Assembly (NCBI GenBank): GCA_963785075.1
Contig: CAWATW010000004.1
Location: 571,001 to 635,000, forward strand
Direction of reading: 5' to 3'
Source of the DNA: an uncultured bacterium
Lineage (GTDB): Bacteria; Actinomycetota; Acidimicrobiia; Spongiisociales; ZC4RG35
Length of the DNA: 64,000 bases
Below the pieces are notes generated by a model. The model was given only the letters and a program-made list of their open reading frames with translations. It was not told the DNA's origin and ran no database searches. A program made the translations under genes and the position numbers. Below are positions 1,707 through 42,118 of this stretch, one piece after another. The number at the start of each line of letters is the position of its first letter. Position 1 is the first letter of the stretch.

Positions 1707-1744
1707 GCAGTACTGAGTACCGAGTACCGAGTACTCAGTACTGC
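1707..1744. repeat. Palindromic heptamer array (GAGTAC[C/T])n between convergent acpS and glmS; possible bidirectional terminator
   Basis: GCAGTACTGAGTAC-CGAGTACCGA-GTACTCAGTACTGC, a perfect 14-bp stem built from 7-mers. Confidence 0.8.
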
Positions 1745-1756
1745 GAGCGCAGCGAG

Positions 1757-3586
1757 CTACTCGACCGTGACCGTTTTGGCCAGGTTTCGCGGCTTGTCGA
1801 CGTCGAGGCCTTTGGCTGTTGCCACGTGATAAGCGAGGAGCTGGAGCGGGACCACAGCGAGCACCGTGCATATGAGGTCGGGGCTGTCGGGCAGCACCAC
1901 GACATGGTCAGCCAGCTCTGCTGCCTCGGCTTCCACGCCGGGCTCTACCAGCATGAGGATCGTTCCGCCGCGGGCTTTCATCTCCTGCATGTTCGACATG
2001 GTTTTGGCCCGGATCTTGGTGTCCATCGCCACGCCGACCACGACGACGCCCGGTTCGATGAGCGCGATGGGACCGTGTTTCATCTCTCCGGCGGCGTAAC
2101 CCTCCGCCCGCACGTACGCAATCTCCTTGAGCTTCAACGCACCTTCCATGGCCACCGGGAAATCCCCGGACCGGCCCAGGAAGAAGAAGTCGCGGACGTC
2201 ACCCCACTGTGCGCTCATGTCGAGGATCTGCGCGTCCAGCTCGAGCGCAGTCCGCATCTTGTCGGGAAGCGCCGTGAGCTCTTCGATCATGTGGCCGATG
2301 GTCCCCGGATCGAGGGTGCCACGAACCTGGGCGATGTAGAGACCAAGCAGCTGCATCGCAACGAGCTGGGTGGTGAAGGTCTTGGTGGCGGCGACACCGA
2401 TCTCAGGTCCGGCACGCGTGTAGAGAACGGCATCGGACTCGCGGGCCAGCGCCGAGTCGACGACGTTGGTGACTCCGATCAAGGTCGATCCCTGCGCTCG
2501 GGCGTACCGGATCGCCGCCAGCGTGTCGAGGGTCTCACCCGACTGGCTGATGCCGATCACCAGGCTCCGACCGTCGAGCACGGGGTCCCGATATCGGAAC
2601 TCGGAGGCGATGTCGATCTCAACCGGCAGCCGGGTCCACCGTTCGATTGCGTACTTGGCCATCATCGCCGCGTGGTACGAGGTGCCACACGCGAGCACGA
2701 ACACCTTGTCGACCATGCGGAGGATCTGCTCGGGGAGCTCGAGCTCACGCAGCGTCACCGCTCCTCTCTCGTCCACCCGGCCACGCAAGGTGTCGGCGAT
2801 GGCTTGGGGCTGCTCGTGGATCTCCTTCAGCATGAACGTCGGATAGCCGCCCTTCTCGGCCGCCTCCAAGTCCCATTCGATCGTGCGCTCGACCGGCTCG
2901 ACAACCTCTCCAGAGAGATCGGACACCCTCACCTCGTCGGCACGGAGCTCGACGACGCGATCGTCGTCGATCACCACCATACGCCGAGTGTGCTCGAGGA
3001 AAGCCGGGATGTCGGAGGCCAGGAAGTTCTCACCGTCACCCTTGCCCACGACGAGTGGACTGCCGCGACGGGCTCCCACGAGCACCTCCGGCTCGTCGGC
3101 CCGGAGCACGCCGAGCGCCATGGCACCCTCGGCGATGACCATCACCTTGCGAACGGCGTCGACGAGCGACAGATCATCCATCTCTTCGATCAGGTGGGCT
3201 ATCACTTCGGTGTCCGTGTCGGACCCGAAGACATGGCCGCGGTCGAGTAGCCCCTGTTTCAGCTCCGCCCAGTTCTCGATGATCCCGTTGTGGACCACGG
3301 CCACCTTCGAGCTGCAGTCGAAGTGCGGATGTGCGTTCATGGTGTTCGGTGCGCCGTGGGTCGCCCAGCGGGTGTGACCGACGCCGGTATTGCCGACCGG
3401 CGCATCCGATTGCAGCGACTTCTCGAGTTCGGCGATCCTGCCTACCTGCTTGACGATGGCGATGCCGTCGGCGGTCTGCACGGAGACTCCCGCAGAGTCA
3501 TATCCACGGTATTCGAGTCGTTCCAGACCCGGAACCAGTATGTCCAGGACCGGACGCGGCCCCACATATCCAACGATGCCACACAT
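1757..3586 (-). CDS. glmS: Glutamine--fructose-6-phosphate aminotransferase
   Basis: MCGIVG N-terminal nucleophile, GHTRWATHG, C-terminal PRNLAKTVTVE. Confidence 0.98.
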   Translation of the reverse strand: MCGIVGYVGPRPVLDILVPGLERLEYRGYDSAGVSVQTADGIAIVKQVGRIAELEKSLQSDAPVGNTGVGHTRWATHGAPNTMNAHPHFDCSSKVAVVHNGIIENWAELKQGLLDRGHVFGSDTDTEVIAHLIEEMDDLSLVDAVRKVMVIAEGAMALGVLRADEPEVLVGARRGSPLVVGKGDGENFLASDIPAFLEHTRRMVVIDDDRVVELRADEVRVSDLSGEVVEPVERTIEWDLEAAEKGGYPTFMLKEIHEQPQAIADTLRGRVDERGAVTLRELELPEQILRMVDKVFVLACGTSYHAAMMAKYAIERWTRLPVEIDIASEFRYRDPVLDGRSLVIGISQSGETLDTLAAIRYARAQGSTLIGVTNVVDSALARESDAVLYTRAGPEIGVAATKTFTTQLVAMQLLGLYIAQVRGTLDPGTIGHMIEELTALPDKMRTALELDAQILDMSAQWGDVRDFFFLGRSGDFPVAMEGALKLKEIAYVRAEGYAAGEMKHGPIALIEPGVVVVGVAMDTKIRAKTMSNMQEMKARGGTILMLVEPGVEAEAAELADHVVVLPDSPDLICTVLAVVPLQLLAYHVATAKGLDVDKPRNLAKTVTVE

Positions 3587-3659
3587 GGTGTTCTCCCATT
3601 CTCAAAGGGCGCGGACAATCACATGTCCACATGCGGGCGGAATCGTCCAGGACCGGGCG

Positions 3660-3815
3660 GTCCTGCCCACCTCGTCGGGGCTTCTGTCGCCGGAGTCACC
3701 TCCGGGTTTTGGTCCCTGACGTCACGACCGTGGGAAGCCGGGAAGGTACCCGCCGAATAGTTCGATGACCTTCCTCCTCGTCACCTGAGCGGTGCTCAGG
3801 TCTGGCGCTGTGTCG
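3660..3815 (-). ncRNA. glmS ribozyme (GlcN6P-activated riboswitch)
   Basis: Minus strand reads AGCGCCAGACCTGAGC-ACC-GCTCAGGT-GACGAGG-AGGAAGGTCATCGAACTATTCGGCGGGTACCTTCCCGG...AAAACCCGGAGGTGACTCCGGCGACAGA, matching the glmS core (AGCGCC, GACGAGG, ATCGAA...TCGGCGG, GGTGAC) and lying directly 5' of glmS. Confidence 0.9.
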
Positions 3816-3835
3816 ATTGTCGATTCCGCCGTTGT

Positions 3836-5185
3836 TCAGTCGTTCGATTCCTCCTCTCCCAATTCCGCCGTCACGACTGCGGCGATCTCGTCAGCGTAGC
3901 GGTGAGCGAGCTCCTCGGAAGATGCTTCCACCATCACCCGCACCAGAGGTTCGGTGCCGGAAGCACGTACGAGCACCCGACCGTCGTCTCCGAGAGCCGA
4001 TTCGGTGTCGGCTACCGCGGCCCAGACCGCGGCGCACCCTTCGAGGCCGTCGCGGTCGGCAACCTTGATATTCAGAAGCACCTGTGGGTATTCGACCATG
4101 GCCTCCGCACGCAGGTCCCGCAGCTGACGGCCGGTGCCCGCCATCACCTCGAGCAACCTGATCCCGCTGAGAAGCCCATCGCCGGTCCGCGCCCGGTCGA
4201 GAAAGATGACATGACCGGACTGCTCGCCACCGAGCACCGCCCGATGCTCACGCATCGCCTCCATCACGTAACGATCGCCGACCTTGGTCTGGACGAGCGT
4301 GATCCCGGCCTCGGTGAGAGCCTTTCGAAATCCCAGGTTGGACATGACGGTTGCGACGACAGTGTCGTTCGAGAGCTTGCCGATGGCCTTCCAGTGGCGA
4401 GCGATGATCGCCATGACCACATCTCCGTTGGCGATCACGCCATCTTCGTCGACGGCGATCATCCGGTCGGCGTCGCCGTCGAACGCAAATCCCACGCGAC
4501 CCCGGACCTGCGCCGCCAAGGCCGCCGGGTGGGTCGCCCCACATCCCTCGTTGATGTTCATTCCGGACGGCTCGGCGAACGCCACGTCGACGTTGGCCTT
4601 GAGACGTTGGAAGAGCGTAGGCGCCGCCCGGTACGCAGCACCGTTGGCGCAGTCGAGAAGCAGGTCGATCCCATTGAACGAGTACGAGGCTCCGGCCACC
4701 ATTTCGCCGACGTACCGGTCCAGCGCATGATCGTCCCAGAATCTGGTTCCGACGTTCGCCCCGAACGGAACGGTCCGAGAGCCGCTGGACCGGAGCCTCG
4801 CTTCGATCCGATCCTCTTCGGAGTCTTTGAGTTTTCCGCCGGAGGCGCCGAGCAGCTTGATCCCGTTGTCGGGAGCCGGGTTGTGCGACGCGCTCACCAC
4901 GGCGCCCATCTCGGCCTCGGAGCGGGCAGTGAGGAGACTGATGCCGCCCGAAGGCATCACGCCCACGTCGATCGTGTCGACCCCGGCCGAGTGAAAACCT
5001 GCCTGGAGGGCTGCGGACAGCATCTCACCAGAGCGTCGGGTGTCGCGACCGACCAGCACGGATCCCCCGGAAAGGAGAGACCCGGCGGCTCGCCCGATAG
5101 ACAGGGCGAACTCCGGGGTCAGCTCCACGTTGGCGACACCTCGAACACCGTCGGTGCCGAAGAGACGTACGCCGTCTTTCAACAT
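3836..5185 (-). CDS. glmM: Phosphoglucosamine mutase
   Basis: LFGTDGVRG, SASHNP active site, DGDADR, GGEQSGH. Confidence 0.97.
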   Translation of the reverse strand: MLKDGVRLFGTDGVRGVANVELTPEFALSIGRAAGSLLSGGSVLVGRDTRRSGEMLSAALQAGFHSAGVDTIDVGVMPSGGISLLTARSEAEMGAVVSASHNPAPDNGIKLLGASGGKLKDSEEDRIEARLRSSGSRTVPFGANVGTRFWDDHALDRYVGEMVAGASYSFNGIDLLLDCANGAAYRAAPTLFQRLKANVDVAFAEPSGMNINEGCGATHPAALAAQVRGRVGFAFDGDADRMIAVDEDGVIANGDVVMAIIARHWKAIGKLSNDTVVATVMSNLGFRKALTEAGITLVQTKVGDRYVMEAMREHRAVLGGEQSGHVIFLDRARTGDGLLSGIRLLEVMAGTGRQLRDLRAEAMVEYPQVLLNIKVADRDGLEGCAAVWAAVADTESALGDDGRVLVRASGTEPLVRVMVEASSEELAHRYADEIAAVVTAELGEEESND

Positions 5186-5198
5186 CGACGGAGACGAC

Positions 5199-5591
5199 TC
5201 AGCGCTTGGTGAACTGCGGCGCCCTGCGCGCCTTGCGCAGACCGTACTTCTTGCGCTCGACCACCCGAGCGTCCCGGGTCAGCATGCCCGCCTTCTTGAG
5301 GGTGGGCCGAAGCTCGGGATCGAGTTCGATGAGCGCACGAGAGATGCCGAGACGGAGGGCATCGGCCTGTCCGGTGGTACCGCCCCCCTCGAGGGTGGCG
5401 TCGATGTCATACCGTCCTTGTGTACCGGTGAGTTGGAGCGGCTCTACGACACGGAGCCGGGCTGCCATGGTCGAGAAATAGCGCTCGAGGGGCTTGCCGT
5501 TGAGCGTCACCTGCCCGCTCCCGTCGCGCAGCCGCACGCGCGCGACCGACTCCTTGCGGCGGCCGGTGGCCTGTATGAGGGGCTTCGACAT
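5199..5591 (-). CDS. rpsI: 30S ribosomal protein S9
   Basis: TGRRKESVARV...ERKKYGLRKARRAPQFTKR. Confidence 0.98.
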   Translation of the reverse strand: MSKPLIQATGRRKESVARVRLRDGSGQVTLNGKPLERYFSTMAARLRVVEPLQLTGTQGRYDIDATLEGGGTTGQADALRLGISRALIELDPELRPTLKKAGMLTRDARVVERKKYGLRKARRAPQFTKR

Positions 5592-6049
5592 CAGGCATCA
5601 ACCTTTCGAATATCGAACGTCAGCGGCTGCGGCTTCTGGGCAGCATGGGGATGGTCCGGACCTGCGTACACCTTGATCTTGCGACCCATGTGACGGCCCA
5701 ACTTGTTCTTCGGCAGCATGCCCTTCACCGCCCGCTCCACGATTGCCTCGGGACGGCGATTGCGGAGGGCTTCGAAAGACTCGGCCTTGAGGCCGCCCGG
5801 GAAACCGGAGTGGCGGTAGTAGATCTTGTCCTGGCTCTTGCCCGACGTGACCGCGACACGGTCGGCGTTGACGACGATCACGAAGTCTCCGCCGTCCACG
5901 TGGGGGGCGAACGTCGGCTTGTGCTTGCCGCGAATGACCTTCGCCACTTCGGACGCGAGTCGTCCGAGCGGAAGATCGGCGGCGTCGACGACCCACCAAT
6001 CGTGGGAGAGGTCATCGGGCTTGGGGCTGTAGGTCTTGTTGTTGGTCAT
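5591..6049 (-). CDS. rplM: 50S ribosomal protein L13
   Basis: [37 protein letters not shown]; start taken at ATG 6049. Confidence 0.97.
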
Positions 6050-6217
6050 AGCAATCCAAACGGTCGTGGCAGACCGGGGTATCTCGGGTGGGAAACGAGA
6101 TGCTCGGAACGAGCAGCCGACAGGATACCGGTTACGCCTTCGGGACACAATCTCGGGTGTCGCCAGGTCGGTCGGACGCACCGAACCGCCGGAACGCAGA
6201 CACCGGGCAACGCCCGA

Positions 6218-7570
6218 TCACTCTGCCGGCTCAGGGAGCGGCAGCGGATCTCCACTCACGAAGGCGGCGATCGCAGGGCCCGCCTCCTCGGTGCGGACGA
6301 CGTAGGACACCCCACCCTCCGTGGAGATGACGACCGGCAACGCCATCGACTCGGACTCGGAGGCGAGAACGAAACGCGCACCGAAGAACCCGAGATTCCA
6401 CGAGTGCGTCGAATCGCCCACCCGGATCGCCGACGTCACCGCGGGGACCAGGCCTGGAACACGGATGACGCCCGCGGGGCTCAGAGCTTTGCCGATCACT
6501 GCCTCGAGCACCTCGCGCTGGCGGGAAGTCCGAACGACGTCGCCGCCGTCGGTGCCCCGCCAATCACCGTCTCGGAGCTCCTCTGTGCTCCTGGATCGAA
6601 CATAGGCAAGGGCGGTGGCCCCGTCGATGACCTGGGTCCCGGCCTCGACATCGAGCCCGGACTTGAGGTCGCGTGTCGGATGATCGAAGGTCAGCTCCAC
6701 ACCGCCAACGGCATCGACGATCGACGCAAACCCCCCGAACTCGACCTCGAGGTATTGGTGGATCGGAATCCCCAGATCTTCCTGGATGGTGGCTGCCAGG
6801 AGATCTCCGCCCCCGTATGCGTAGGCGGCATTGATCTTGTCCGTTCCCTGGCCGGGAACTCCCACCTTCAGGTCTCGAGGCAGGCTCAGCATCTGCACGG
6901 TCCCGCCGGAAACGTGGGCGAGGATGATCACGTCTGCCCTCTGGCCTTCGAACGTACCGAAGCGTCCTTCGAGGTCGTCGGGCAAGTTCTCGCGTGAGTC
7001 GCTTCCGACGATCAGGTAGGTCTCCGGCCCCGGCCCCCCGGCGATGGACGGCGTCTCGACGCGGGAGAGCTGACTCTCCACCCACACGAGTCCGAGTGCG
7101 GCGATTGCGACGAGGACGAAGAGAAGGAGCAGCAGACGTCGAAGGAAACGGCCGCGCCTGCGCCCGGCCTTCTTCTTCGGCGGCGTTGGTGAAGTCGGTG
7201 TGTCACGCACGGGAGGCACCGAGCCGCCACCAGACCGGTGCGGCGGCTGAAGAGGACTCGGGGCGGCCGGGACACCAGCCTGAACTTGTGACGGGGTCAC
7301 CACCGGCATCATCGCGGTGCGATCGGCCGGCGCCGGGAGGTCCTCCTCAGGTTTCACTTGTGGAGGGGGCGTCATCATCCGGGTCGCGGCATCGCCGTAG
7401 CGACGATCCTCCGAATCGGAATCGCCGGGCGCATCGTCGGGATGTTCTTTCGCCGGGTCGACGGTGGCGACGACCTCCCGCGGCGGCACGCCGGGAGAAG
7501 GCTCCGCCGTCGATCGAGCTTTCCACGGCTGTCCCGGCTGCCAATGATCTTCGTGTTGTTCGTCGGCCAT
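6218..7570 (-). CDS. LCP (LytR-CpsA-Psr) family cell-wall ligase with Pro-rich N-terminus
   Basis: TM helix, then LIVGSDSR, RADVIIL, SLPRD, KINAAYAYGG, ALAYVRSR, RTSRQR; start uncertain (7570-7633). Confidence 0.88.
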   Translation of the reverse strand: MADEQHEDHWQPGQPWKARSTAEPSPGVPPREVVATVDPAKEHPDDAPGDSDSEDRRYGDAATRMMTPPPQVKPEEDLPAPADRTAMMPVVTPSQVQAGVPAAPSPLQPPHRSGGGSVPPVRDTPTSPTPPKKKAGRRRGRFLRRLLLLLFVLVAIAALGLVWVESQLSRVETPSIAGGPGPETYLIVGSDSRENLPDDLEGRFGTFEGQRADVIILAHVSGGTVQMLSLPRDLKVGVPGQGTDKINAAYAYGGGDLLAATIQEDLGIPIHQYLEVEFGGFASIVDAVGGVELTFDHPTRDLKSGLDVEAGTQVIDGATALAYVRSRSTEELRDGDWRGTDGGDVVRTSRQREVLEAVIGKALSPAGVIRVPGLVPAVTSAIRVGDSTHSWNLGFFGARFVLASESESMALPVVISTEGGVSYVVRTEEAGPAIAAFVSGDPLPLPEPAE

Positions 7571-8502: not shown

Positions 8503-8578
8503 GACAGCAGCGTACCGACGATGGCGGCGGGCGAATTCCGAGCGGGTATCGTCTCGGCTCCGGCCGGGGAGGGCATGC

Positions 8579-9490: not shown

Positions 9491-9514
9491 CCCCAGCATC
9501 CCGAAAGGTCGGGA

Positions 9515-10246: not shown

Positions 10247-10248
10247 GG

Positions 10249-12302: not shown

Positions 12303-12366
12303 CCCGGTCTCCAGTCTCCAGTCGCCCACAGGCAGCTGGCGACTGGTGACTGGTGACTGGTGACTC
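12303..12366. repeat. Inverted heptamer-array pair at the rplQ-coaA junction
   Basis: (CCAGTCT)n-CCAGTCGCC...GGCGACTGG-(TGACTGG)n. Confidence 0.85.
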
Positions 12367-15641: not shown

Positions 15642-16424
15642 CTATCCGAGGGAGACGGGGATCTTGGCGTCTTCGGGTACGGTGGTGACGACCACGCCGT
15701 CGGGGGTGATGCAGACCGTGTGCTCCCAATGGGCGGAGAGGCTGCCGTCTGCGGTGCGGACCGTCCAATGGTCGTCGTCCACCTTGGTCTCGGCGCCTCC
15801 GAGGTTGAACATGGGTTCGATGCACACGGCCATTCCCGTTCGGAGCTTGGTTCCCTTGCCGCGAACGCCGTAGTTGGGGATCTGCGGTTCCTCGTGCATC
15901 TGGCGTCCGATGCCGTGGCCCACGTACTCACGGACGACGCCGTAGCCGTGGGGCTCGGCCACTGCAGAGACGGCGGCGCCGATGTCGCCGACACGGGCAC
16001 CGTGCTTGACCTGTGCGATCCCTGCCCACATGCCCTGTTCGGTCACGTCGATGAGAGACTGGGCCTCCGGGGAGATGTCACCGATCCCCATGGTGAAGGC
16101 GGCGTCGCCGTGATACCCCTCGAAGATGGCACCCGCATCGATCGACACGATGTCGCCTTCTTCGAGCCGATAGTCGCCGGGGATGCCATGCACGATCACA
16201 TCGTTGGGCGATGCGCAGATCACGCCGGGGAACGGTGGGTGGCTGTACCCGAGGAAGGAACCGACACACGAATGTGCTTCGAGCACGACGCGGGCCACCT
16301 CGTCGAGCCTGCGCATGCTCACCCCGGGAGCGGCCGCCTCGCGTATCGCCTCGTGCATCACCGCCACGCACCGACCGGCGAGCTCCATCTTTGCAAACTC
16401 CTTGCGGTTCTTGATGGTGATCAT
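15642..16424 (-). CDS. map: Methionine aminopeptidase type I
   Basis: HGIP, SIDAGA, GYHGDAA, GHGIG, IEPM, SAHWEHT. Confidence 0.96.
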   Translation of the reverse strand: MITIKNRKEFAKMELAGRCVAVMHEAIREAAAPGVSMRRLDEVARVVLEAHSCVGSFLGYSHPPFPGVICASPNDVIVHGIPGDYRLEEGDIVSIDAGAIFEGYHGDAAFTMGIGDISPEAQSLIDVTEQGMWAGIAQVKHGARVGDIGAAVSAVAEPHGYGVVREYVGHGIGRQMHEEPQIPNYGVRGKGTKLRTGMAVCIEPMFNLGGAETKVDDDHWTVRTADGSLSAHWEHTVCITPDGVVVTTVPEDAKIPVSLG

Positions 16425-16457
16425 CCGAGGCGCTCCTGCGGAGCGCCGTCCAGCGCA

Positions 16458-16516
16458 TTGCGTCTTGCGTCCGGCGCCATCGATGCGCATGACGCATGAC
16501 GCATGACGCATGACGT
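16458..16516. repeat. Heptamer-array pair at the adk-map junction
   Basis: TGCGTCTTGCGTC...(GCATGAC)x4. Confidence 0.8.
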
Positions 16517-16521
16517 GTCAC

Positions 16522-17070
16522 TCACGCCGAAGCCCCGAGCTGATCGAGGACCCTCGCCGTCACCGATTCGATCTCGCCCATTGCGTTCACCCGACGAATG
16601 AGGTGGCGACCGTCGTAGAGCTCGATCAGCGGAGCCGTCTGCTCGTTGTAGACCTCGAGACGGGTGCGAATCGTGTCTTCGTTGTCGTCTGCGCGACCAC
16701 GCGACAGCATGCGGCCGACGACCTCGTCCTCGTCCACTTCGAACAGCACCACGGCGTCGAGGCCGTTCTCGCCGAGCAGGTCGTCCAAGGCCTTCGCCTG
16801 CGGGAGGGTCCGCGGAAACCCATCCAGGATGTATCCATTGGCGGCATCGGGCTGGCCGATCCGGTCTTGGAGCATCTCGATGACGATGTCGTCGGACACG
16901 TATCCACCCGACTCCATGATGCTCTTCACCCGCCGACCGAGGTCGGTTTCGGGATCGAGCGCACGGAACATGTCGCCGGTAGACACATGAGCGATCCCCA
17001 GCGCCTCGGCCACCCGTTGCGCCTGAGTACCTTTGCCTGCTCCGGGAGGCCCCACGAACAGAAGCCTCAT
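16522..17070 (-). CDS. adk: Adenylate kinase (short LID)
   Basis: GPPGAGKGTQA, STGDMFR, LDGFPR, RGRADD. Confidence 0.97.
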   Translation of the reverse strand: MRLLFVGPPGAGKGTQAQRVAEALGIAHVSTGDMFRALDPETDLGRRVKSIMESGGYVSDDIVIEMLQDRIGQPDAANGYILDGFPRTLPQAKALDDLLGENGLDAVVLFEVDEDEVVGRMLSRGRADDNEDTIRTRLEVYNEQTAPLIELYDGRHLIRRVNAMGEIESVTARVLDQLGASA

Positions 17071-17076
17071 GGGAAC

Positions 17077-17150
17077 AGTCTCCAGTCTCCAGTCTCCAGT
17101 CTCCAGCCAGACCCCGCCGTGCCGGCGACTGGTGACCGGTGACCGGTGAC
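17077..17150. repeat. Inverted heptamer-array pair at the secY-adk junction
   Basis: (CAGTCTC)x4...GGCGACTGG(TGACCGG)x2 TGAC. Confidence 0.85.
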
Positions 17151-19032: not shown

Positions 19033-19093
19033 GTCATGCGCTTTGCGTCATGCGTCGTCTTGCGCAGGACGCAAGACGCAAGACACAAGACGT
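19033..19093. repeat. Inverted heptamer-array pair at the rpmD-rplO junction
   Basis: GTCATGCG..TGCGTCATGCGTC...GGACGCAAGACGCAAGACACAAGACG. Confidence 0.75.
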
Positions 19094-23466: not shown

Positions 23467-24648
23467 CTACTCCTCTTCCTCGGTGCTCGAGTCCTCGGTC
23501 TCGACGGCTTCGCCGGCCGGGGCCTCACTCGTTTCGACTGCCGCCTCGGCCTCGGCGGGGGCGGCTGCTTCCTGGGCCGCCTCCTCGGCGGGGGCGGCTG
23601 TCTCTTCGGCCGCCTCCTCGGCGGGGGCGGCTGGCACCACCGTCGTCTCGTCGGAAACGCCCTCGGCCATCGCCGTCTCCGGCGCTACCGGTGTGGTGTC
23701 TGAGGCTGTAGCGTCGGTCGAGGCAACCGTCTCCGATTCATCGACCACCTGACGCTCTTCGCGATATTGAGCCTCGGCTTCTTCCGCAGCGATGCGTCGC
23801 TTGCCGCCGCCGGCCTCGATGAGACGCCGGCCACCCTCACGCTTGCCACCTCCGGCCTCGATGAGACGCTTACCGCCTCCGGCCTCGATGAGCCTGGGAA
23901 CTCTATCACCTCCGGCGGCCTGTTCCGCCCGGGCTTTGGCCGGTGCAGCACGGCCACGAGTGGCAGGGCCACCGGTGGCGAGCGCCGCCTCTGCGGCGAT
24001 CTTCTCGCGGTCGCCGCCGGCCCCACGGAGCACATCGCCCTTGTAGACCCACACCTTCACACCGATGGTGCCCACCGTGGTGTGTGCGGTCGCAATTCCG
24101 AAGTCGACATCGGCACGAAGCGTGTGAAGCGGGACCCGGCCCTCGCGGTACCACTCACGGCGTCCCATCTCGGCACCACCGAGCCGTCCTTTCGCCTCGA
24201 CGCGGACGCCTTCGGCGCCGGCCTTCATGGCGGTGGCGACGGCACGCTTCATGGCACGTCGGAAAGCAACACGGTTCTCGAGCTGGTCGGCAATGCCTTG
24301 CGACAGCAGCTGAGCGTCGGTGTCGGCATCCTTCACCTCGATGATGTTCAACTTCACCGGCTTGGAGGCCATCTTCTCGAGCTCGCCCCGAAGCCGCTCT
24401 GCCTCGGATCCCTTGCGTCCGATCACCACACCCGGCCGGGCAGTATGGATCTCGACCACCACGCGGTCGCGAGTGCGCTCGATGTCGATCCTCGACACCG
24501 CACCACGACGCAACTGGCCACGCAGATAGTCGCGCAGCTTCCAGTCCTCGTTCACCAACTCCACGTAGTTGTTGTCCGAGTACCACTTGGATTTCCAGTC
24601 ATTGACGACCCCAATCCGGAATGCGTAGGGGTGTGTCTTCTGACCCAT
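23467..24648 (-). CDS. rpsC: 30S ribosomal protein S3 with long repeat-containing C-terminal extension
   Basis: [32 protein letters not shown]; about 180 extra residues after the core. Confidence 0.97.
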
Positions 24649-27106: not shown

Positions 27107-27758
27107 CGCTCGCGCTCCTCGCCTTCACGGCTTCACGAACGAGCACGATCGAGCCGTTTGGTCCTGGCACCGGACCACCGAGCAGCAAGAGGCCTCGCTC
27201 TGCGTCGACCTCGACGATCTCGAGGTTGAGAATGGTGGTCTTGTCGCCACCCATCCGCCCAGCCATGCGAGTGCCCTTGAACACCCGTGCAGGAGTCGCG
27301 CATGCGCCGATCGACCCGGGCGCACGATGCTTTTTGTGGTTTCCGTGGCTGGCGCCCTGACCTGAGAAGTTGTGACGCTTCATCACGCCGGCGAAGCCCT
27401 TGCCCTTGGAGATCCCGGTGACGTCGGCCTTTCCGCCCTTGGCCAGCACGTCGCCGATGCCGATCTCCTGGCCTATCTCGAAGCCGGCGGCGTCGTCGAC
27501 GCGAACTTCCACCAGGTTCGCCACCGGTGCGACTCCGGCCTTGGCGAAGTGCCCGGCGTCCGGCTTGTTGACACGATTCGGCTTCACGTCCCCAAATCCG
27601 ATCTGGACGGCTGAGTAGCCATCGGTCTCGGGCCGCTTCACCTGCACGATGTGGCAAGGCCCGGCCTTGATCACGGTCACCGGGATCGCCCTGGCGTCCG
27701 CGTCGAAGATCTGCGTCATCCCCAGCTTCTCGCCGAGAATCGCATTCAATGAACTCAT
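27099..27758 (-). CDS. rplC: 50S ribosomal protein L3
   Basis: [27 protein letters not shown]. Confidence 0.97.
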
Positions 27759-27784
27759 GCCTGCACCTCCGAGTTCTCAGATCC

Positions 27785-27815
27785 ACGCAAGGCGCAGGAC
27801 GCAAGACGCAAGACG
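27785..27815. repeat. Single-arm heptamer array (ACGCAAG)n at the rpsJ-rplC junction
   Basis: ACGCAAG GCGCAGG ACGCAAG ACGCAAG ACG. Confidence 0.7.
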
Positions 27816-27816
27816 G

Positions 27817-28132: not shown

Positions 28133-28212
28133 CAGTCTCCAGTCTCGGGTCTCCAGTCTCCAGTTCCACGCTCAGCCACCGACTGGTGACCGGGGACTGG
28201 GGACTCGGGACT
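28133..28212. repeat. Inverted heptamer-array pair at the tuf-rpsJ junction
   Basis: CAGTCTC CAGTCTC GGGTCTC CAGTCTC CAG...GACTGGT GACCGGG GACTGGG GACTCGG GACT. Confidence 0.8.
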
Positions 28213-33919: not shown

Positions 33920-36900
33920 TCACTCGTCGCCTTCGGCATCGCCGTCTTCGACGTCATCGGCACCCCGTTGGGCACCCAACGAGGCGAGCCACTCGGCCGG
34001 GTTCTCGGGCAGACCCTCGTCGGCGGAGCCGGAGCCCTCGCCACCGAGGATGCCAAGCGCCGACACGGTCGCTGCACCAGGAAGCGCCGGCTGGAGCACC
34101 TGGTACTCGTCGGAGCCGGTCCCAGCCGGGATCAGCTTGCCGATGATGACGTTCTCCTTCAGACCACGCATGAAGTCGGACTTGCCCTGGATGGCCGCAT
34201 CCGTCAGCACCCTCGTGGTCTCCTGGAACGAGGCGGCAGACAGCCACGAATCCGTGGCCAGCGACGCCTTGGTGATACCCATGAGCTCGGGCCGGCCCTC
34301 GGCCGGACGCTTGCCGTCCTGAACGAGGGCCTTGTTGGTCTCACGGAACAGCTGATCGTCGACCAGCTCGGCAGGCAGGAAGTCGGCATCGTTGGCCGAC
34401 ACCACCCGAATGCGCTTGAGCATCTGACGCACGACCAGCTCGATGTGCTTGTCGTGGATCTCCACACCCTGGCTCCGGTAAACCTCCTGCACCTGGTCCA
34501 CCAGGTACTGCTGGGCGGAACGGACGCCGCGGATCTCGAGCACTTCCTTGGGATCCAACGGACCTTCGGTGAGCTGGGCACCGGGTTCGATCACGTCACC
34601 GTCGGCGACGCGGAGACGGGCACGACGGCTCACCGGGTACTCCAGATCGCCTTCCTTGGTTTCGACGACCACCCGACGTCCGGCATCGTCTTCGATCACG
34701 CGAACCGGCCCGCCGTCTTCGGACAAGGATGCCTTGCCCTTCGGTGCACGAGCCTCGAACAGCTCGACGACGCGGGGCAAACCGTGCGTGATGTCTTCAC
34801 CCGCCACACCTCCCGTGTGGAAGGTACGCATCGTGAGCTGCGTACCGGGCTCACCGATCGACTGAGCAGCCATGATTCCCACGGCCTCGCCCAGCTCCAC
34901 GATCTTCCCGGTCGCCAGCGACAATCCGTAGCACGCCTGGCAGACACCGAGCTTGGCGTCGCAGGTGAGCACGGACCGGACCCGGACACTCTCGACGTCT
35001 GCACCCTGTGCCTCGAGCGCCAGCAGAGCCTTGGTGCCGATGATGGTGCCGGCCTTCAGCTTCACGCCATCGGCGCCTTCGACGAGTTTGCGCTCGATCT
35101 TGACGTCATCGGCCAGCATGCGGCCATAGACCCGGGAGCGGAGGTTGCGGATGACCTTGCCCCGCTCGTCCGTGATCGCGATCTTGATGCCCTTGTCGGT
35201 TTCGCAGTCCTCGATGTTGACGATCAGTTCCTGACTGACGTCCACGAGACGCCGTGTCAGGTATCCCGAGTCGGCAGTGCGCAACGCCGTGTCGGCGAGT
35301 CCCTTGCGCGCACCGTGCGTCGAGATGAAGTATTCGAGCACCGACAGGCCTTCACGGAAGTTCGAGATGATCGGACGCGGGATGATGTCACCCTTGGGGT
35401 TGGCCACCAGCCCACGCATACCGGCGATCTGCCGGACCTGCATGATGTTCCCTCGGGCACCCGAGCCGACCATCATGTCGATCGAGTTGAACTTCTCTTT
35501 CTTCATGTTGGCTTCCATCGCGTCCTTCACGCGATCGGTCGCCTCGGTCCAGATCTCGATGAGCTCCTGGCGACGTTCGTCGTCGGTCACGACACCCTTC
35601 TGGTAGAGCGACTGCACTTTGTCGGCGCGAGCCTCGTACTCCTCCAGGATCTGTGGCTTGTTGGGCGGCGTCTTCACATCGTCCAGCGCGATCGTGAGTC
35701 CGGCCTTCGTGGCGTACCGGAAGCCCAGGCTCTTGATGGCGTCGAGGGTCTCGGCGACCTCGGTGCGGCGATACCGCTCGATGATCAGCTCGATCAGCTT
35801 GCCGATGTCCGACTTGATCACCACCGAGTTCACATACGGGAACGACGCCGGCAGAGCCGTGTTGATCAGTGCCCTGCCCAGGGTGGTATCGGTGAGCTTG
35901 GCGCCGTCGACCGGTTCGTCCGTGAGCAGTGCCCCCAGTGAGTCGTGCAGGTCGGCATGGATCTCCGGATCGCCCGCCAACTCACCGACACGAAGCCTGA
36001 TCGGGGCGTGAAGCGAGAGCTCACCCATGTCGTAGGCCATCATCGCTTCTTCCAGCGAACCGAACGTGCGTCCCGCTCCCTTGGCGTCCTCGACGAACTC
36101 CGATAGGTAGTAGACACCGATCACCATGTCCTGGGAAGGAGTGACGATCGGACGTCCCGATGCCGGCCGCAGCACGTTGTTCGTCGAGAGCATCAACACC
36201 CGCGCCTCGGCCTGTGCCTCTGCCGACAGCGGAAGGTGCACGGCCATCTGGTCTCCGTCGAAGTCGGCGTTGAACGCCTCGCACACGAGCGGATGGATCT
36301 GGATCGCCTTGCCCTCGACCAGCACTGGCTCGAAGGCCTGGATGCCGAGCCGGTGGAGCGTCGGGGCACGGTTCAAGAGCACGGGATGCTCCTGGATCAC
36401 CTCGCCGAGCACGTCCCAGACCTGCGGGCGCTGGCGTTCCACCATGCGCTTGGCAGACTTGATGTTCTGCGCCAGGTCGAGATCCACGAGACGCTTCATC
36501 ACGAACGGCTTGAAGAGCTCGAGCGCCATGACCTTGGGCAATCCGCATTGGTTCAGCTTCAATTGGGGACCCACGACGATGACGGAACGACCCGAGTAGT
36601 CCACGCGCTTGCCGAGCAGGTTCTGGCGGAACCGGCCCTGCTTGCCCTTCAGCATGTCGGAAAGCGACTTGAGCGCACGATTGCCGGGGCCTGTGACCGC
36701 ACGGCCGCGGCGGCCGTTGTCGAACAACGCGTCGACGGCCTCCTGCAGCATCCGCTTCTCGTTGTTCACGATGATCTCGGGAGCACCGAGGTCGAGAAGC
36801 CGCTTCAGACGGTTGTTCCGGTTGATGACGCGGCGATACAGGTCATTGAGGTCGGACGTGGCGAAGCGACCACCGTCGAGCTGCACCATGGGCCGGAGAT

Positions 36901-37864
36901 CCGGCGGGATGACGGGGATGGTCTCCATGATCAGATCTGTGGGGTGGTTCTTGCCCTCGAAGAACGGTTTGACCACCTTCAGGCGCTGCGTGGCACGCTG
37001 ACGCTTCTGAGCCGAATTTGCATCGAGGTCTTCGTTGAGGCGCTCCATCTCGGCATCGAGGTCGAGCCGTCCCAGGAGGTCCTTGATGGCTTCTGCACCC
37101 ATGCCGCCGTGGAAATACATCGAGTAGCGCTCGAAGATCTCACGCCAGAGCTGCTCTGAGTCCACGAGGGTCTTCGGCGTGAATCCCTTGAATGAATCGA
37201 ACGCCTCTTCGACCAACTCGGCCTCACGATCGGCACGATCCTTGCGAGCCGCGACCTCCTTCTCGACTTCGCGCCGTCGAGCGGAGATCTCCTGGGGCTT
37301 GGCACCGCCCTCTTCCATCCGCGCGAGTTCGTCCTCGAGCGCCTCGAGCCGGATCGCCTTCCAGTCCTCGAAGTCCTCGGCGACGACCTGGAGCTCGGCG
37401 CGCATGTTGTCTTCGAGTTCGGGCAGATCCGTCTGACGCTTCTCCTCGTCGACCGAGGTGATGAGATAGGCAGCGAAGTAGATGACCTTCTCGAGGTCCT
37501 TGGGTGACATGTCGAGCAGGTAGCCGAGCCGGCTGGGCACACCCTTGAAGAACCAGATGTGGGTGACCGGGGCGGCGAGCTCGATGTGACCCATGCGCTC
37601 GCGACGAACCTTCGACCGCGTGACTTCCACGCCGCAGCGCTCGCAGACGATGCCCTTGTACCGGATGCGCTTGTACTTGCCGCAGTAGCACTCCCAGTCC
37701 CGCTGCGGCCCGAAGATGCGCTCGTCGAAGAGGCCCTCCTTCTCGGGCTTGAGGGTCCGGTAGTTGATCGTCTCGGGCTTCTTGACCTCACCGTAGGACC
37801 AGGCGCGAATCTGGTCGGTGGAGGCGAGGCCGATCTTCAGTTCATCGAAGACTTGACGTGCCAC
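33920..37864 (-). CDS. rpoC: RNA polymerase subunit beta'
   Basis: NADFDGD catalytic motif, N-terminal Zn finger, actinobacterial-type coiled-coil insertion. Confidence 0.99.
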
Positions 37865-37874
37865 TTTGCTCCTT

Positions 37875-37976
37875 TGAGTACTGAGTACTTGATACGGAGT
37901 ACTGAGAACCGAGCGCTTGCACCGAACCGTGACCCGTGAGTCCTGTCTCGATACTCAGTACTCGGTACTCAGTACT
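37875..37976. repeat. Inverted heptamer-array pair at the rpoB-rpoC junction
   Basis: TGAGTAC TGAGTAC...GGAGTAC TGAGAAC...ATACTCA GTACTCG GTACTCA GTACT. Confidence 0.8.
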
Positions 37977-37979
37977 TCT

Positions 37980-40900
37980 CTATACGTCTGCTTCCGGGCG
38001 TTCCGGACGTGACAGGTCGATGCCGAGGCTCTCGGTCGGCCGATACATGTCGTCCTCGAGCTCACGGAGCTCGACTTCCTCACCAGCCGAGAGCATCTCG
38101 ACGTTGAGGCACAGACTCTGCATCTCCTTGACCAACACCCGGAACGACTCGGGAATGCCCGGTTCGGGGATGTTGTCACCCTTGACGATGGCCTCGTACA
38201 CCTTGACACGACCCTGGACGTCGTCCGACTTGATGGTGAGAAGCTCCTGGAGCGCATAGGCGGCGCCGTAGGCCTCGAGGGCCCACACCTCCATCTCTCC
38301 GAAGCGCTGGCCACCGAACTGGGCCTTGCCACCGAGCGGCTGCTGGGTGATCATCGAATACGGGCCCGTCGACCGGGCATGGATCTTGTCGTCGACCAGG
38401 TGCACCAGTTTGAGGATGTAGATGTACCCCACGGTGACCCCGGTATCGAACGGCTCCCCGGTCCGGCCGTCGTAGAGCTGGGCCTTTCCGTCGTCCCCGA
38501 CGAGCCTGACGCCGTCGCGGTTCGCACGAGCGTTCTTGATCACCTGGGCGATCTCGTCCTCACGGGCGCCGTCGAACACCGGCGTCGCCGTGCGGGTCCA
38601 AGGCTCGGCGCCGACCACCGCAGGACTGTCGCCCTCGAACGGCTCCCAACCCTGGGCTGCCGCCCATCCGAGGTGGGTTTCGAGCACTTGGCCCAAGTTC
38701 ATCCGGGACGGCACACCGAGTGGGGACAGGATGATGTCGACCGGCGTTCCGTCCTCGAGGAACGGCATGTCCTCTTCGGGCAGGATCTTCGCCACGATTC
38801 CCTTGTTTCCGTGGCGGCCGGCGAGCTTGTCACCTTCGGAGATCTTGCGCTGCTGGGCGACGTACACCCGAACGAGCTCGTTGACTCCCGGTGGAAGGTC
38901 GTATCCCTCGGCTCGTTTGAAGACCTTGACGGCGATGACCTTGCCCTGCTCTCCGTGGGGCACCTTCAGCGACGTGTCACGGACTTCGCGAGCCTTCTCA
39001 CCGAAGATCGCACGGAGCAGGCGCTCTTCAGGCGTCAGCTCGGTCTCACCCTTGGGTGTGACCTTGCCGACGAGGTAGTCGCCGGGTCCGACCTCGGCTC
39101 CGATCCGGATGATTCCGTCCTCGTCGAGATCGGCGAGAACCTCATCGGCGACATTCGGGATGTCTCGTGTGATCTCCTCGGCACCGAGCTTGGTGTCCCG
39201 AGCGTCGATCTCGTGCTCCTCGATGTGGATCGAAGTGAGCACGTCGTCCTTGACGAGGCGCTCCGAGAGGATGATGGCATCCTCGAAGTTGTGGCCGTTC
39301 CAAGGCATGAAGGCGACCATGAGGTTGCGACCGAGGGCGAGCTCACCCTTGTCGGTCGAAGGGCCGTCTGCGAGAACGCTGCCGACCTCGACCTTGTCAC
39401 CTTCACGAACCAACGGCTTGTGATTCATGCACGTGCCCTGGTTCGAACGCTCGAACTTGTCGAGCGGATAGGTGTGCTTCTTGTTGGTGCCCTTTTCCTT
39501 CACGAGGATCTCGTCGCCCGTGACCTCCACGACCTCGCCTTCGACCCCGCAGATGAGCATGTCACCTGAGTCCTGGGCGGCGCGGCGCTCGACACCGGTT
39601 CCGACGAGCGGTGCATCGGAGGTGAGCAGTGGCACCGCCTGACGCTGCATGTTCGAGCCCATCAGGGCACGGTTTGCGTCGTCGTGCTCCAGGAACGGGA
39701 TGAGAGCGGTCGAGACCGAGACCAACTGCTTGGGAGAAACGTCCATGTAGTCGACCTTGTCGGGTGACACGTAGTCCACTTCTCCGCCCGCCGTCCGGAC
39801 AAGCACACGATCGTTCTGGAACGCCCCGCTCTCCTGCAGCGGCGCGTTCGCCTGCGCGATGACGTACCGCTCCTCCTCGGTGGCGGTGAGGTAGTCGATC
39901 TGCTCGGTCACGACTCCGTCGCGAGCCTTGCGGTACGGCGTCTCGATGAAGCCGAACCGGTTGACCCGGGCGTAGCAGGCGAGCGACCCGATGAGACCGA
40001 TGTTCGGGCCTTCAGGAGTCTCGATCGGGCACATCCGGCCGTAATGGGACGGGTGAACGTCTCGCACCTCGAACCCGGCTCGCTCACGGCTGAGACCACC
40101 CGGGCCGAGCGCCGAGAGCCGGCGGCGATGGGTGAGCCCGGCCAGAGGGTTGGGCTGATCCATGAACTGACTCAGCTGGCTGGTGCCGAAGAACTCCTTG
40201 ATGGAGGCTGTGACCGGACGGATGTTGATCAGGCTCTGGGGCGTGATCGACTCCGGATCCTGCGTCGTCATCCGCTCCTTCACCACCCGCTCCAGCCGGG
40301 TGAGCCCCACCCGAACCTGGTTCTGAATCAGCTCTCCGACCGTCCGGATACGGCGATTGCCGAAGTGGTCGATGTCGTCGGTGACGACAGGGATCTCGAC
40401 GCCCTGATGAGTCGTCATGGTGGGGTTGCCGGCGTGCAGCGCAACCAGGTACTTGATGCAGTCCACGATGTCTTCGTCACGCAGCATCGACAGGTTGGCG
40501 GCCCGGTAGTCATCCGGGACGGCCTCGTCGAACTTCTGGCTCAGCTTGTAGCGGCCAACGCGCGTGAGGTCGTAACGCTTGGGATTTCGGAACAAGGTCT
40601 GGATCAGGTTGCGGGCCGACTCCACCGTCGTGGGCTCGCCCGGGCGAAGCTTGCGGTACAGATCGACGAGAGCTTCCTCCCGATCGGTGGCCGTGTCGCG
40701 CTCGATCGAATTCCGGATCGACTCGGCGCCATCGAACAGGTCGAGGATCTCTTCGTCGGTTTCGGCGATGCCGAGCGCACGGAGGAAGGCCGAGATGTAC
40801 TGACGGCGCTTGCGATCGACGCGAACGCCGATCGTGTCGCGCTTGTCGGTGTCGAACTCGAGCCAAGCACCACGACCGGGGATCAACTTGCCCGAGTAGA

Positions 40901-41354
40901 TCAGACGGTCCGAAGTCTTGTCGGGTGTGTAGTCGAAATAGACACCCGGCGACCGGACGAGCTGGGACACGACGACACGCTCGGTGCCGTTGATGATGAA
41001 GACGCCGTTTTCGGTCATCATCGGGAAATCCCCCAGGAAGACCTGCTGCTCCTTGATCTCACCGGTCTGCTTGTTCATGAAGCGGGCGGTGACGAACAGG
41101 GGCTTGGCGAAGTTGGCGTCGCGCTCTTTGGCCTCTTCGATCGAATACGGCGGTTCGCCGAAACGATGATCGGTCAGTTCGAGTGCGAGAGTGCCCGTGA
41201 AATCCTCGATCGGGCTGATCTCTTCGAATATCTCTTTGAGTCCCTCATCGAGGAACCACGTGAACGATTCTTGTTGTACAGCAAGAAGATCGGGGAGAGG
41301 GAGGACCTCCGGGATCTTTCCAAACGAAAAGCGCTCGGCGACGCGCGACGACAA
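37980..41354 (-). CDS. rpoB: RNA polymerase subunit beta
   Basis: [39 protein letters not shown]. Confidence 0.99.
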
Positions 41355-41509
41355 GGGAGCCTCCTTGGAGTCCAGACAACCAGAAAGGGCACACTACCAG
41401 GACTGGCAATGCCTCGCAAATGCGTGCACCGCAACACACACCCCTTCGCTTGGTGCACCTGTTCGGTTGTCTGCCGAAGTCGCTCGCAACGAGCACCACG
41501 ACTCGCTGC

Positions 41510-41539
41510 ATCCTACGCCGAAGTGCCCGAAGGTGTCAA
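41510..41539 (-). promoter_or_regulatory. sigmaA-type promoter of rpoBC
   Basis: TTGACA-N18-TAGGAT, about 155 nt upstream of rpoB. Confidence 0.7.
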
Positions 41540-41573
41540 CGGTTCTCGCGACCCAACCGGTCACCGGTCCCCA

Positions 41574-41750
41574 GCGTCGTGCGTCGTGCGTCATGCGTCG
41601 TGCGTCATGCGTCGTGCGTCATGCGTCGTGCGTCGTGCGTCGTGCGTCGTGCGTCGTGCGTCGTGCGTCGTGCGTTGTGCGTCGTGCGACGTGCGCCATG
41701 CGTCATGCGTCATGCGTCATGCGTCATGCGTCGTGCGTTGTGCGTCATGC
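41574..41750. repeat. Tandem heptamer array (TGCGTC[G/A]), about 25 copies
   Basis: About 177 bp of near-perfect 7-mer periodicity. Confidence 0.95.
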
Positions 41751-41760
41751 GCGGCCGAGC

Positions 41761-42118
41761 ACGCGAACCACGGCTTCACCGTGCATCGTGGCCAGAAGCC
41801 GCCCAACCCCAGCACACCCGCCGTCAGCACGGCACTCGGGGGTCTGGGGATTGCCCCCCAGACATCATCAACCCGCCCAACCCGCGAACCACGGCTTGCC
41901 GATGCATCGTGACCTGACGCCGCCCGATCCGGAGACACCCGCCATCAGGACGGCACTCGGGGGTCTGGGGGTCGCCCCAGTGGGGCTCGCTTTGCTCGCC
42001 CCGTCTCGGGTCTCCGGTCTCCAGTCTCCAGTCTCCAGTCTGGTGACAACGCGAACCACGGCTTCACCGTGGATCCTGACCTGAAGCCGCCCGAACCGGA
42101 AACACCCGCCATCAGGAC
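41761..42118 (+). repeat. ~115-bp REP/MITE-like repeat, units 1-3 (unit 3 interrupted by IS3), with a (CCAGTCT)n array at about 42002-42040
   Basis: Shared CGCGAACCACGGCTT...GCCGCCC...ACACCCGCC(G/A)TCAG(C/G)ACGGCACTCGGGGGTCTGGGG...CCCCAG. Confidence 0.88.

Follow-up and report, generated by a model that had tools for sequence, protein, structure and literature searches.

Inverted heptamer arrays between operon genes of an uncultured Acidimicrobiia bacterium: probable ORF-less members of an intercistronic hairpin element class

Tandem arrays with a unit of seven nucleotides, often set as inverted pairs, occupy intergenic gaps in a 64,000-nucleotide stretch of the genome of an uncultured Acidimicrobiia bacterium (the whole stretch, G000:C4:571001-635000, is hereafter called the window, and G000 is its source assembly). 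In this study, these arrays were analysed in the window, throughout the source genome and in related genomes. On balance, the inverted 7-mer arrays of the window appear to belong to a class of intercistronic hairpin elements of the type of ribosomal intervening sequences (IVSs) and short tandemly repeated repetitive (STRR) DNA; they would be members of this class without an open reading frame (ORF), and their arms are short-unit tandem arrays, usually of 7 nt. The ORF-bearing members of the same class would be the cassettes that carry a TIGR02436 gene and the IVSs of 23S rRNA; in architecture, the window hairpins match those of cyanobacterial STRRs.

The source assembly comprises 4.30 Mb in 11 contigs, with 65% G+C and 95.6% completeness, and the nearest relatives by rpsJ are Acidimicrobiia metagenome-assembled genomes (MAGs). 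Arrays were detected using Tandem Repeats Finder (TRF) in the window and genome-wide, together with direct reading of the window. Genes were called with a crude codon-usage caller written for the analysis, and the calls cover 88% of the genome. Four congeneric genomes (G001, G002, G003 and G004) were compared, and syntenic regions of 54-60 kb were taken from G003 and G002, whose flanks are 90-100% and 78-91% identical to the window, respectively. The minus strand of the window carries glmS with its ribozyme, the alpha, spc and S10 ribosomal protein operons, tuf, fusA and rpoBC. The flanking proteins of the sites were assigned by family to glmS, L17, a PRK-family kinase, Met aminopeptidase, Adk, SecY, L15, L30, L3, S10, EF-Tu, RpoC and RpoB. 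The neighbour of glmS, which a sequence-only reading had named acpS, is a YjeF_N/carbohydrate-kinase (Nnr-like) ORF with no AcpS domain at E 1e-5.

The same reading had placed heptamer arrays in the gaps of ten junctions, and all ten sites were seen as intergenic period-7 arrays by TRF and direct reading. The 13 window TRF rows of period 7 range from 3.4 to 25.4 copies, and 13/13 lie outside gene calls. The sites are as follows, with z denoting the folding score of the gap:

1709..1743, minus strand: 5.0 units AGTACTG/AGTACCG, palindromic at their AGTACT core; the gap, 1681-1756, separates glmS from the Nnr-like gene; self-folding, z -4.16
12303..12365, minus strand: inverted pair in the gap between L17 and the PRK-family kinase, left arm 12307-12323 (GGTCTCC/AGTCTCC/AGTCGCC), 10-nt loop, right arm 12336-12365 (CTGGTGA)x4.3, with one A/T difference per unit; z -6.40
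16459..16515, minus strand: inverted pair in the gap between Adk and Met aminopeptidase, arms 16459-16472 (TGCGTCT)(TGCGTCC) and 16486-16515 (CGCATGA)x4.3 around a loop; z -4.07
17076..17150, minus strand: inverted pair in the SecY/Adk gap, arms 17076-17106 (CAGTCTC)x4.4 and 17122-17150 (CCGGTGA)x4.1 around a loop; periodic stem, z -1.96
19033..19092, minus strand: inverted pair filling the L30/L15 gap from stop codon to ribosome-binding site, arms 19033-19057 (TGCGTCA-type) and 19063-19092 (CGCAAGA)x4.3; z -3.70
27785..27815, minus strand: S10/L3 gap with a single arm, (ACGCAAG)x4.4; no stem predicted, z +0.15
28133..28212, minus strand: inverted pair in the EF-Tu/S10 gap, arms 28133-28168 (CAGTCTC)x5.3 and 28181-28212 (GACTGGG)x4.6; z -3.09
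37875..37976, minus strand: inverted pair in the RpoB/RpoC gap, arms 37875-37906 (TGAGTAC)x4.6 and 37952-37976 (TACTCAG)x3.6, with a 45-nt loop; z -4.84
41574..41751, no strand assigned: single 178-nt array, 25.4 copies of GCGTCGT/GCGTCAT, upstream of rpoB
42010..42041, no strand assigned: single arm (GTCTCCA)x4.6, then one GGTGAC; copies of a 120-nt repeat lie around it; z -1.08

Inverted arms are therefore present in six gaps (12303, 16458, 17077, 19033, 28133 and 37875) and single arms at three sites (27785, 41574 and 42010), the array at 1709 having a unit with a palindromic core. At four of the six pairs (12303, 17077, 16458 and 19033), the arms differ by one base per unit, as had been noticed at several sites; the differing units are GTCTCCA versus GTCACCA and TGCGTCT versus TGCGTCA. 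The arrays are real: a contig of the public run X1, possibly the source sample itself, spans 16301-16579, including the hairpin at 16459..16515, with one mismatch, and two congeneric genomes have arrays of the same kind, so an assembly artefact is excluded. Separate from the pair at 16459..16515, a small perfect GC hairpin at about 16429-16447 adjoins the start codon of map; G003 keeps it with compensatory changes in its sequence, and the likely ribosome-binding site falls within its 3' half. A second tuf copy (G000:C4:550407-551690, outside the window) has a near-identical tuf/rpsJ hairpin at G000:C4:550407-550494. The arrays were also considered as the cause of the assembly breaks found about 140-250 nt upstream of rpsJ in many relatives, and this was rejected; the contigs end inside tuf, not in arrays, because tuf is duplicated.

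Six of the nine window gaps are predicted to fold into one long stem on the transcribed strand (z -3.1 to -6.4), in which 6-bp helices are split by 1x1 mismatches, thereby giving 20-35 bp with a mismatch at every seventh position. The adk/secY gap gives a stem of the same type at z -1.96, and the gaps with single arms only (27750-27816 and 41985-42060) are predicted to be unstructured. Genome-wide, 27/171 sites had z below -3 compared with 3/171 control gaps, using mononucleotide shuffles of the plus strand only and length-matched array-free gaps as controls. The proposal of an element acting in mRNA fits the periodic stems predicted on the transcribed strand in the window, and it does not extend to most arrays of the genome, which are single and unstructured. 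Among 28 arm pairs with one difference, there were 15 transitions, 4 A<->T, 3 C<->G and 6 A<->C/G<->T changes, with no preferred base change. A systematic A/T mismatch, either as a general rule or as a signature like that of diversity-generating retroelements (DGRs), was looked for across these 28 pairs and not seen.

The arrays had been described as a system at about ten junctions of highly expressed operons, and this description was too narrow: they group into approximately 165 sites across the genome, 106 of which consist of one array alone. Period 7 is clearly enriched over other periods, as anticipated. Exact arrays with at least three copies of a primitive unit numbered 84 at period 7, compared with 7 at period 5, 18 at period 6, 0 at period 8, 2 at period 9 and 0 at periods 10-11; TRF arrays with at least four copies numbered 146 at period 7, 53 at period 6, 20 at period 9 and 1 at period 8. 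According to our gene calls, the intergenic share of TRF arrays was 215/230 for period 7, 6/125 for period 6 and 6/69 for period 9. Several unrelated unit families share the period, and where three had been named, more than 12 have at least five arrays each; some arrays grade between families by single substitutions (AGACCGG to AGACCCG to AGACGCA, G000:C6:770351-770441). The sites were distributed over gaps of at least 40 nt as follows:

Co-directional gaps, minus strand: 64 sites in 707 gaps
Co-directional gaps, plus strand: 44 sites in 644 gaps
Convergent gaps: 38 sites in 363 gaps
Divergent gaps: 19 sites in 557 gaps

Divergent gaps are poor in sites (19/165 sites compared with 557/2271 gaps), and co-directional and convergent gaps are enriched, which points to transcribed spacers.

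The two inverted arms expected at most sites were found at six of the ten window sites but not across the genome, where most sites are single and 23 are inverted pairs. Five of these 23 lie in the window and one is the duplicate at the second tuf copy; adk/secY is a sixth inverted window site missed by the criterion that gave these counts. Nor are arms preferentially inverted genome-wide: among 198 non-overlapping arrays, a partner within 300 nt was inverted for 31, direct for 32 and of both kinds for 7. The distance to an inverted partner is mostly below 100 nt; direct partners peak at 100-150 nt, where a repeat family of 120 nt separates arrays. The arm pair GTCTCCA and GTCACCA recurs at several junctions. 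The window holds 8 clustered sites, compared with a mean of 2.6 per 64 kb, and 13/232 sliding 64-kb windows have at least as many; it is dense in hairpin-type sites, yet not unique in total site number. Genes flanking sites outside the window had a mean codon-adaptation score of 0.653 versus 0.638 for other genes (Mann-Whitney p 1e-8), and 18% of them fell in the top codon-adaptation decile. The score is only slightly higher, and the link with high expression is therefore a weak tendency rather than a rule.

The slightly raised codon-adaptation score (0.653 versus 0.638) would suit arrays that are bound, as DNA, by a regulator or nucleoid protein which recognises repeats and adjusts transcription of the ribosomal and RNA polymerase operons, and tandem heptamers are reportedly bound by proteins elsewhere, for example SARP (Streptomyces antibiotic regulatory protein) regulators and ToxR at ctx. 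However, one genome holds more than 12 unrelated unit sequences, close relatives have swapped units at the same junction, divergent gaps, which contain promoters, are poor in sites, and arrays are found within operons, with a stop codon directly on one side and a start codon on the other. We therefore assign this explanation a very slight probability.

A relationship with one small gene family was evident. The genome has three TIGR02436/PF05635 genes, which encode four-helix-bundle proteins annotated as '23S rRNA intervening sequence protein', and 3/3 lie between inverted heptamer arrays, each of another unit family (GTCTCCR/GGAGACC, ACGTTSW and GTCCGAG); these families are among the commonest of the genome. 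The three proteins were aligned, and 80 homologue loci were taken from public genomes spanning Acidobacteriota, Chloroflexota, Gemmatimonadota, Planctomycetota, Bacteroidota, several proteobacterial classes, Desulfobacterota, Verrucomicrobiota and others. A period-7 array was present within 350 nt of the gene at 55/80 loci, on both sides at 40 and on one side at 15, leaving 25 with none. Thirty-seven of the 40 two-sided loci were inverted (17 exactly, 15 with one mismatch and 5 with two), none was direct only, and 3 were ties. TRF rows near the gene numbered 104 for period 7, 22 for period 8 and at most 7 for any other period; the rest of the 80 loci, roughly three-fold larger, had just 25 period-7 rows. 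The cassettes, that is, the gene with its arms, tend to sit within operons. Of the 154 ORFs flanking homologue genes, 109 were scanned against Pfam; both neighbours were family-supported at 26 loci, and at 24/26 both were co-oriented with the cassette gene. The operon partners thus separated included grpE-dnaK (four loci), carA-carB, hisA-hisF, rmlB-rmlA, hisS-aspS, metH-MTHFR, HlyD-AcrB and oppA-oppB.

The four congeners contain 14 TIGR02436 loci, 9 of which have arrays of the same period on both sides, inverted and with at most one mismatch by TRF; the periods of these 9 pairs were 7 (five), 8 (two), 9 (one) and 10 (one), and the other 5 loci have partial arrays. GxxExxY (TIGR04256) genes were not found in the source genome, and in a small sample from three other genomes, 2/4 loci showed inverted arrays with a period of about 8-9 by eye. 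Other cassette cargo was sought in the source genome, and the genes found between arrays were ordinary (nuoK, three flagellins, argininosuccinate lyase, a LiaF-like gene and helix-turn-helix (HTH) proteins). Three small ORFs also lie between heptamer arrays there, namely L205:600-890 (97 aa), L206:270-671 (134 aa) and L212:352-579 (76 aa); none of the three matched Pfam, the 97 and 134 aa ORFs had no NCBIfam match, and they may be further cassette cargo.

Comparison with the two syntenic genomes revealed that elements are exchanged at fixed junctions:

map/adk: TGCGTCT/TGACGCA hairpin in the window; (GTACTGA)x4.5 in G003; 1-nt gap in G002
L15/L30: TGCGTCA/GACGCAA in the window; CAGTCTC/GACTGGN in G003; CCGTTCA/CGGTGAA in G002
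adk/secY: hairpin in the window; same family in G003; single (GCGTTCT)x4 in G002
S10/L3: array in the window; same family in G003; different in G002
tuf/S10: hairpin in the window; same family in G003; different in G002
rpoB/rpoC: hairpin in the window; same family in G003; 33-nt gap in G002

At map/adk and L15/L30, the unit families of the source genome and G003 differ despite flanks that are 91-96% identical, and L15/L30 holds inverted pairs of three different families in the three genomes. In contigs of related strains from public runs, 66 other nucleotides stand in place of the 96-nt adk/secY hairpin, and the L15/L30 array has lost 7 nt, exactly one unit. Period-7 arrays were present at 12/80 rpsJ loci of other Acidimicrobiia, with units that all differ.

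Cassettes behave in the same manner. The three TIGR02436 genes of the source genome occupy the same three junctions as those of G003. Protein identity at the first junction is 57%, with the gene inverted between flanks of 92-94% identical DNA; it is 48% at the second, where the flanks are 91-94% identical, and 77% at the third. Paralogues within the source genome are 41-44% identical. In the nuo operon of G004, a 528-nt cassette with CCCCAGT/GACTGGG arms replaces the 115-nt interval C6:765083-765197 of the source genome, which holds a bare inverted hairpin of the AGAACGT family. Cassettes are present in G001, G002 and G004 at a junction that is array-free in the source genome (C6:113704-113766); the arms there have period 8 in G004 and G002, and period 9 with a broken gene in G001. 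The GGCCGTG unit of G003 occurs both around a cassette and in a bare hairpin adjoining glmS.

The arrays could also be plain microsatellites, formed by replication slippage with a polymerase-determined preference for 7 nt, tolerated only outside reading frames and devoid of element identity or function, with inverted pairs arising by local template switching. Most sites are single and unstructured, arrays grade between units by single substitutions, copy number changes by one unit in the related-strain contig, and the units lack an orientation bias relative to transcription. Moreover, heptanucleotides are the most abundant class of long simple-sequence repeats (LSSRs) in several phyla including Actinobacteria, and slippage has been proposed for them (Mrazek 2007, in the part relayed by PMC4679880). 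Slippage, however, leaves unexplained how both arms come to have an unrelated yet complementary unit between flanks that are 91-96% identical, why the pair GTCTCCA/GTCACCA recurs at several junctions, why one small gene family has inverted brackets in 37/40 two-sided cases across phyla, and why arrays and TIGR02436 co-occur at the genome level. We regard this explanation as fairly unlikely.

The idea that the window hairpins are the empty footprints of TIGR02436-type cassettes, excised or decayed at these very junctions, can be judged from the same comparisons. One junction is a cassette in G004 and a bare hairpin in the source genome, cassette arms and bare hairpins use the same unit families, and the GGCCGTG unit of G003 is found in both settings. 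Together with the inverted brackets of the three genes of the source genome and the 37/40 two-sided loci, these observations uphold the link to a small cassette that had been suggested. They do not carry over to the window junctions. The ORF that had been looked for between the arms at the orthologous junctions of relatives is missing: no TIGR02436 homologue was found in 116 loci (tuf-rpsJ-rplC in about 110 relatives, plus the regions of G002 and G003 that are syntenic to the window), and a footprint at the window sites is for this reason not shown. Moreover, the cassette arms and hairpin arms at the shared G004/G000 junction are of different unit families, the junction with cassettes in G001, G002 and G004 is array-free in the source genome, and the window loops (10-45 nt) contain no ORF and no conserved remnant. 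Such a direct footprint origin has a poor chance of being correct.

We return to the assignment of the window arrays to a class of hairpin elements, with the TIGR02436 cassettes as their ORF-bearing counterparts. At the genome level, TIGR02436 genes were carried by 7/12 genomes with arrays near rpsJ versus 1/12 without (Fisher p 0.027) and, in a second set of 29 relatives that counts the unpublished genome G021 as one with neither arrays nor TIGR02436, by 8/9 versus 6/20 (p 0.005); these p-values overstate the case because kin are not independent and MAGs are incomplete. Other observations weigh against the assignment. No array of period 7 accompanies the gene at the 25 loci mentioned above. 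The same gene family is also found between arms of period 8, 9 and 10, so period 7 is dominant and not obligatory, contrary to the earlier notion of one process that fixes the period. The absence of TIGR02436 genes from the 116 loci counts on the same side, and hairpins are not obligatory footprints because the junction with a cassette in three congeners is clean in the source genome. The median z of the sites genome-wide is -0.8, and most sites are single arrays without significant structure; with 106 of 165 sites single, the hairpin-element reading covers a minority of sites. For nine cassettes the difference between the arms is a transition; read on the sense strand of the gene, it yields G-U in only 3/9 and A-C in the others, and there is accordingly no sign of selection for pairing in the sense RNA. 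The units have no orientation bias relative to transcription; this lack of bias, the low G-U count and the mostly single, unstructured arrays count against a constraint at the RNA level. Folding and cleavage of the window stems are predictions.

The STRR features found here include an excess of 7-nt units, an intergenic location, several families and inverted sets with predicted hairpin folds. STRRs reportedly also lie inside a structured RNA gene, to go by the title of work by Vioque in 1997, and the unit CCCCAGT seen here is, we presume, a classic STRR unit. In filamentous cyanobacteria, STRR hairpins of 7-bp repeats are located between hupS and hupL and have been proposed to act in transcript stability or translational coupling (PMC2670836). 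The likeness covers tandem 7-bp units in several families per genome, placed in intergenic regions, with inverted sets that form hairpins between co-transcribed genes (PMC2670836, in the text available). Our host differs in being, by its rpsJ relatives, a member of the Acidimicrobiia and not a filamentous (heterocystous) cyanobacterium, and neither the association with PF05635 cassettes nor the exchange of elements at fixed junctions observed here figures in the STRR description in the available text of PMC2670836.

The IVSs of 23S rRNA provide the second likeness. The IVS of Coxiella burnetii contains an S23p ORF and two or three tandem GACAGAT heptamers, the number of which varies among strains, and RNase III cleaves its 28-bp terminal stem where the first heptamer repeat begins (excerpts of PMC4990558). 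Terminal inverted repeats that form a long stem with heptameric repeats are thus common to the Coxiella IVS and the present elements (PMC4990558, same excerpts), and the S23p/PF05635 ORF family is that of the three array-flanked genes of the source genome. The window elements differ by lying in mRNA spacers between protein-coding genes, not in 23S rRNA, and by lacking an ORF. An IVS in the 23S of the organism itself was also considered, but the source assembly contains no 23S gene; in G001 and G002, the 23S genes have a near-normal length. A 1.2-kb insertion in the 23S gene of the same-order relative G026 was considered as an IVS and rejected; it is a group I intron (RF00028, 55 bits; L119:1436-1722) without arrays.

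Other heptamer repeats have been described. The LSSRs of Mrazek 2007 share the excess of 7-nt tandem repeats and the avoidance of reading frames, and the account relayed by PMC4679880 treats repeats as such, leaving aside inverted pairs of arms, the bracketing of cassettes and the turnover of elements. Intergenic TAACTGA heptamers of Beggiatoaceae, Cyanobacteria and Bacteroidetes, with a proposed post-transcriptional role, are likewise abundant direct repeats and also occur in ribosomal protein operons (MacGregor 2015, PMC4679880, in part). They consist of one unit, with 169 direct sets versus 1 indirect, just upstream of start codons, whereas the arrays here have many units and are often inverted. 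No paper on heptamer hairpins in Acidimicrobiia was found in a full-text literature search; the hairpins therefore appear undescribed in this lineage, as had been supposed, although heptanucleotide repeats as such are in print for Actinobacteria in the relayed account of Mrazek 2007. Similarly, no paper was found on PF05635/TIGR02436 genes being generally flanked by inverted heptamer arrays, and the curators' notes of NCBIfam and InterPro and supplementary files, outside the scope of the search, may say more.

Repetitive extragenic palindromic sequences and bacterial interspersed mosaic elements (REP/BIME) are palindromic intercistronic elements of highly transcribed operons and are thought to stabilise mRNA. 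The window hairpins are likewise palindromic and intercistronic, and they differ by having no conserved consensus, units unrelated between sites and arms that are tandem arrays. The source genome, at 95.6% completeness, gave no match for the Y1 transposase of REP-associated tyrosine transposases (RAYT, PF01797). Unlike miniature inverted-repeat transposable elements (MITEs), sites that share an arm family have loops without common sequence. PF05635 resembles the DGR protein Avd (PMC10053308, in part), and one TIGR02436 protein of the source genome has a weak NF033474 match (E 2e-5, below the cut-off). The present cassettes differ from DGRs in that no reverse transcriptase adjoins the TIGR02436 genes and no adenine-specific pattern is seen between the arms; the sole RVT_1 gene (C11:98738-99427) lies elsewhere in the genome and has an in-frame TAG. 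Genes of the 23S_rRNA_IVP family have been noted between cas genes (PMC3936711, in part), which fits intercistronic insertion.

These comparisons suggest how the proposed elements might work. They would be co-transcribed with the operon and fold in the mRNA, where the stems would either be cut by RNase III or act as stabilising or translation-coupling stems. The source genome encodes RNase III (G000:C10:428878-429519), and from the Coxiella case we infer that this enzyme may process the window stems. Cutting or stabilising by the stems would allow essential cistrons to tolerate an insertion between them. Within an arm, units would be homogenised by slippage, and a single difference between founder units would then be repeated along the stem; a mismatch once per unit would need no special design, because each arm would be homogenised separately from differing founder units. 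Whole elements would be gained, lost or exchanged as units.

Several other features lie near the arrays. A repeat of approximately 120 nt has 26 genome copies in head-to-tail clusters often separated by heptamer arrays; it has a GC-rich terminal hairpin and no Rfam family match at the gathering score. Its copies are located as follows:

Window 41757-42122 and 52483-52676: copies of the ~120-nt repeat
G000:C10:405153-406083, C10:461531-462311, C4:565206-565847 and C8:129268-129640: copies of the ~120-nt repeat

Three flagellin genes in tandem have heptamer arrays of two families between and around them (G000:C4:328016-334746). In the window, the glmS ribozyme (RF00234, 96 bits) lies upstream of glmS at 3664-3820 on the minus strand, and a 33-nt tandem repeat (2.5 copies, 92% matches) at 23550-23633 lies within a coding region of the ribosomal protein cluster. 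An IS3-family transposase gene (HTH_Tnp_1 and rve) is located just upstream of rpoB at 42118-43671, and it contains a 312-nt tandem duplication with 100% identity (42118-42742), which may be genuine or an artefact of assembly.

For more than three decades, it has been an open question what heptamer repeats (STRR, LSSR) and rRNA IVSs do and where they come from, and each has been regarded as a curiosity of its own; the present data connect the two and open the link to testing. A bolder proposal, which we put forward tentatively and consider rather doubtful, is that STRR hairpins, ORF-bearing 23S IVSs and the operon hairpins of Acidimicrobiia form one pan-bacterial class. PF05635/TIGR02436 cassettes would be its autonomous members, whose protein would act in trans to create, maintain or move arrays, and bare hairpins and single arrays would be non-autonomous, as MITEs are to transposons; the arms would not be inherited but added at element ends by a templated or slippage-type process. 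If the link between heptamer arrays and this gene family holds, many 'hypothetical' four-helix-bundle genes in operons, including those noted in cas loci in the available part of PMC3936711, would be insertions and not operon members, and heptamer hairpins would be a widespread, unrecognised layer of mRNA architecture.

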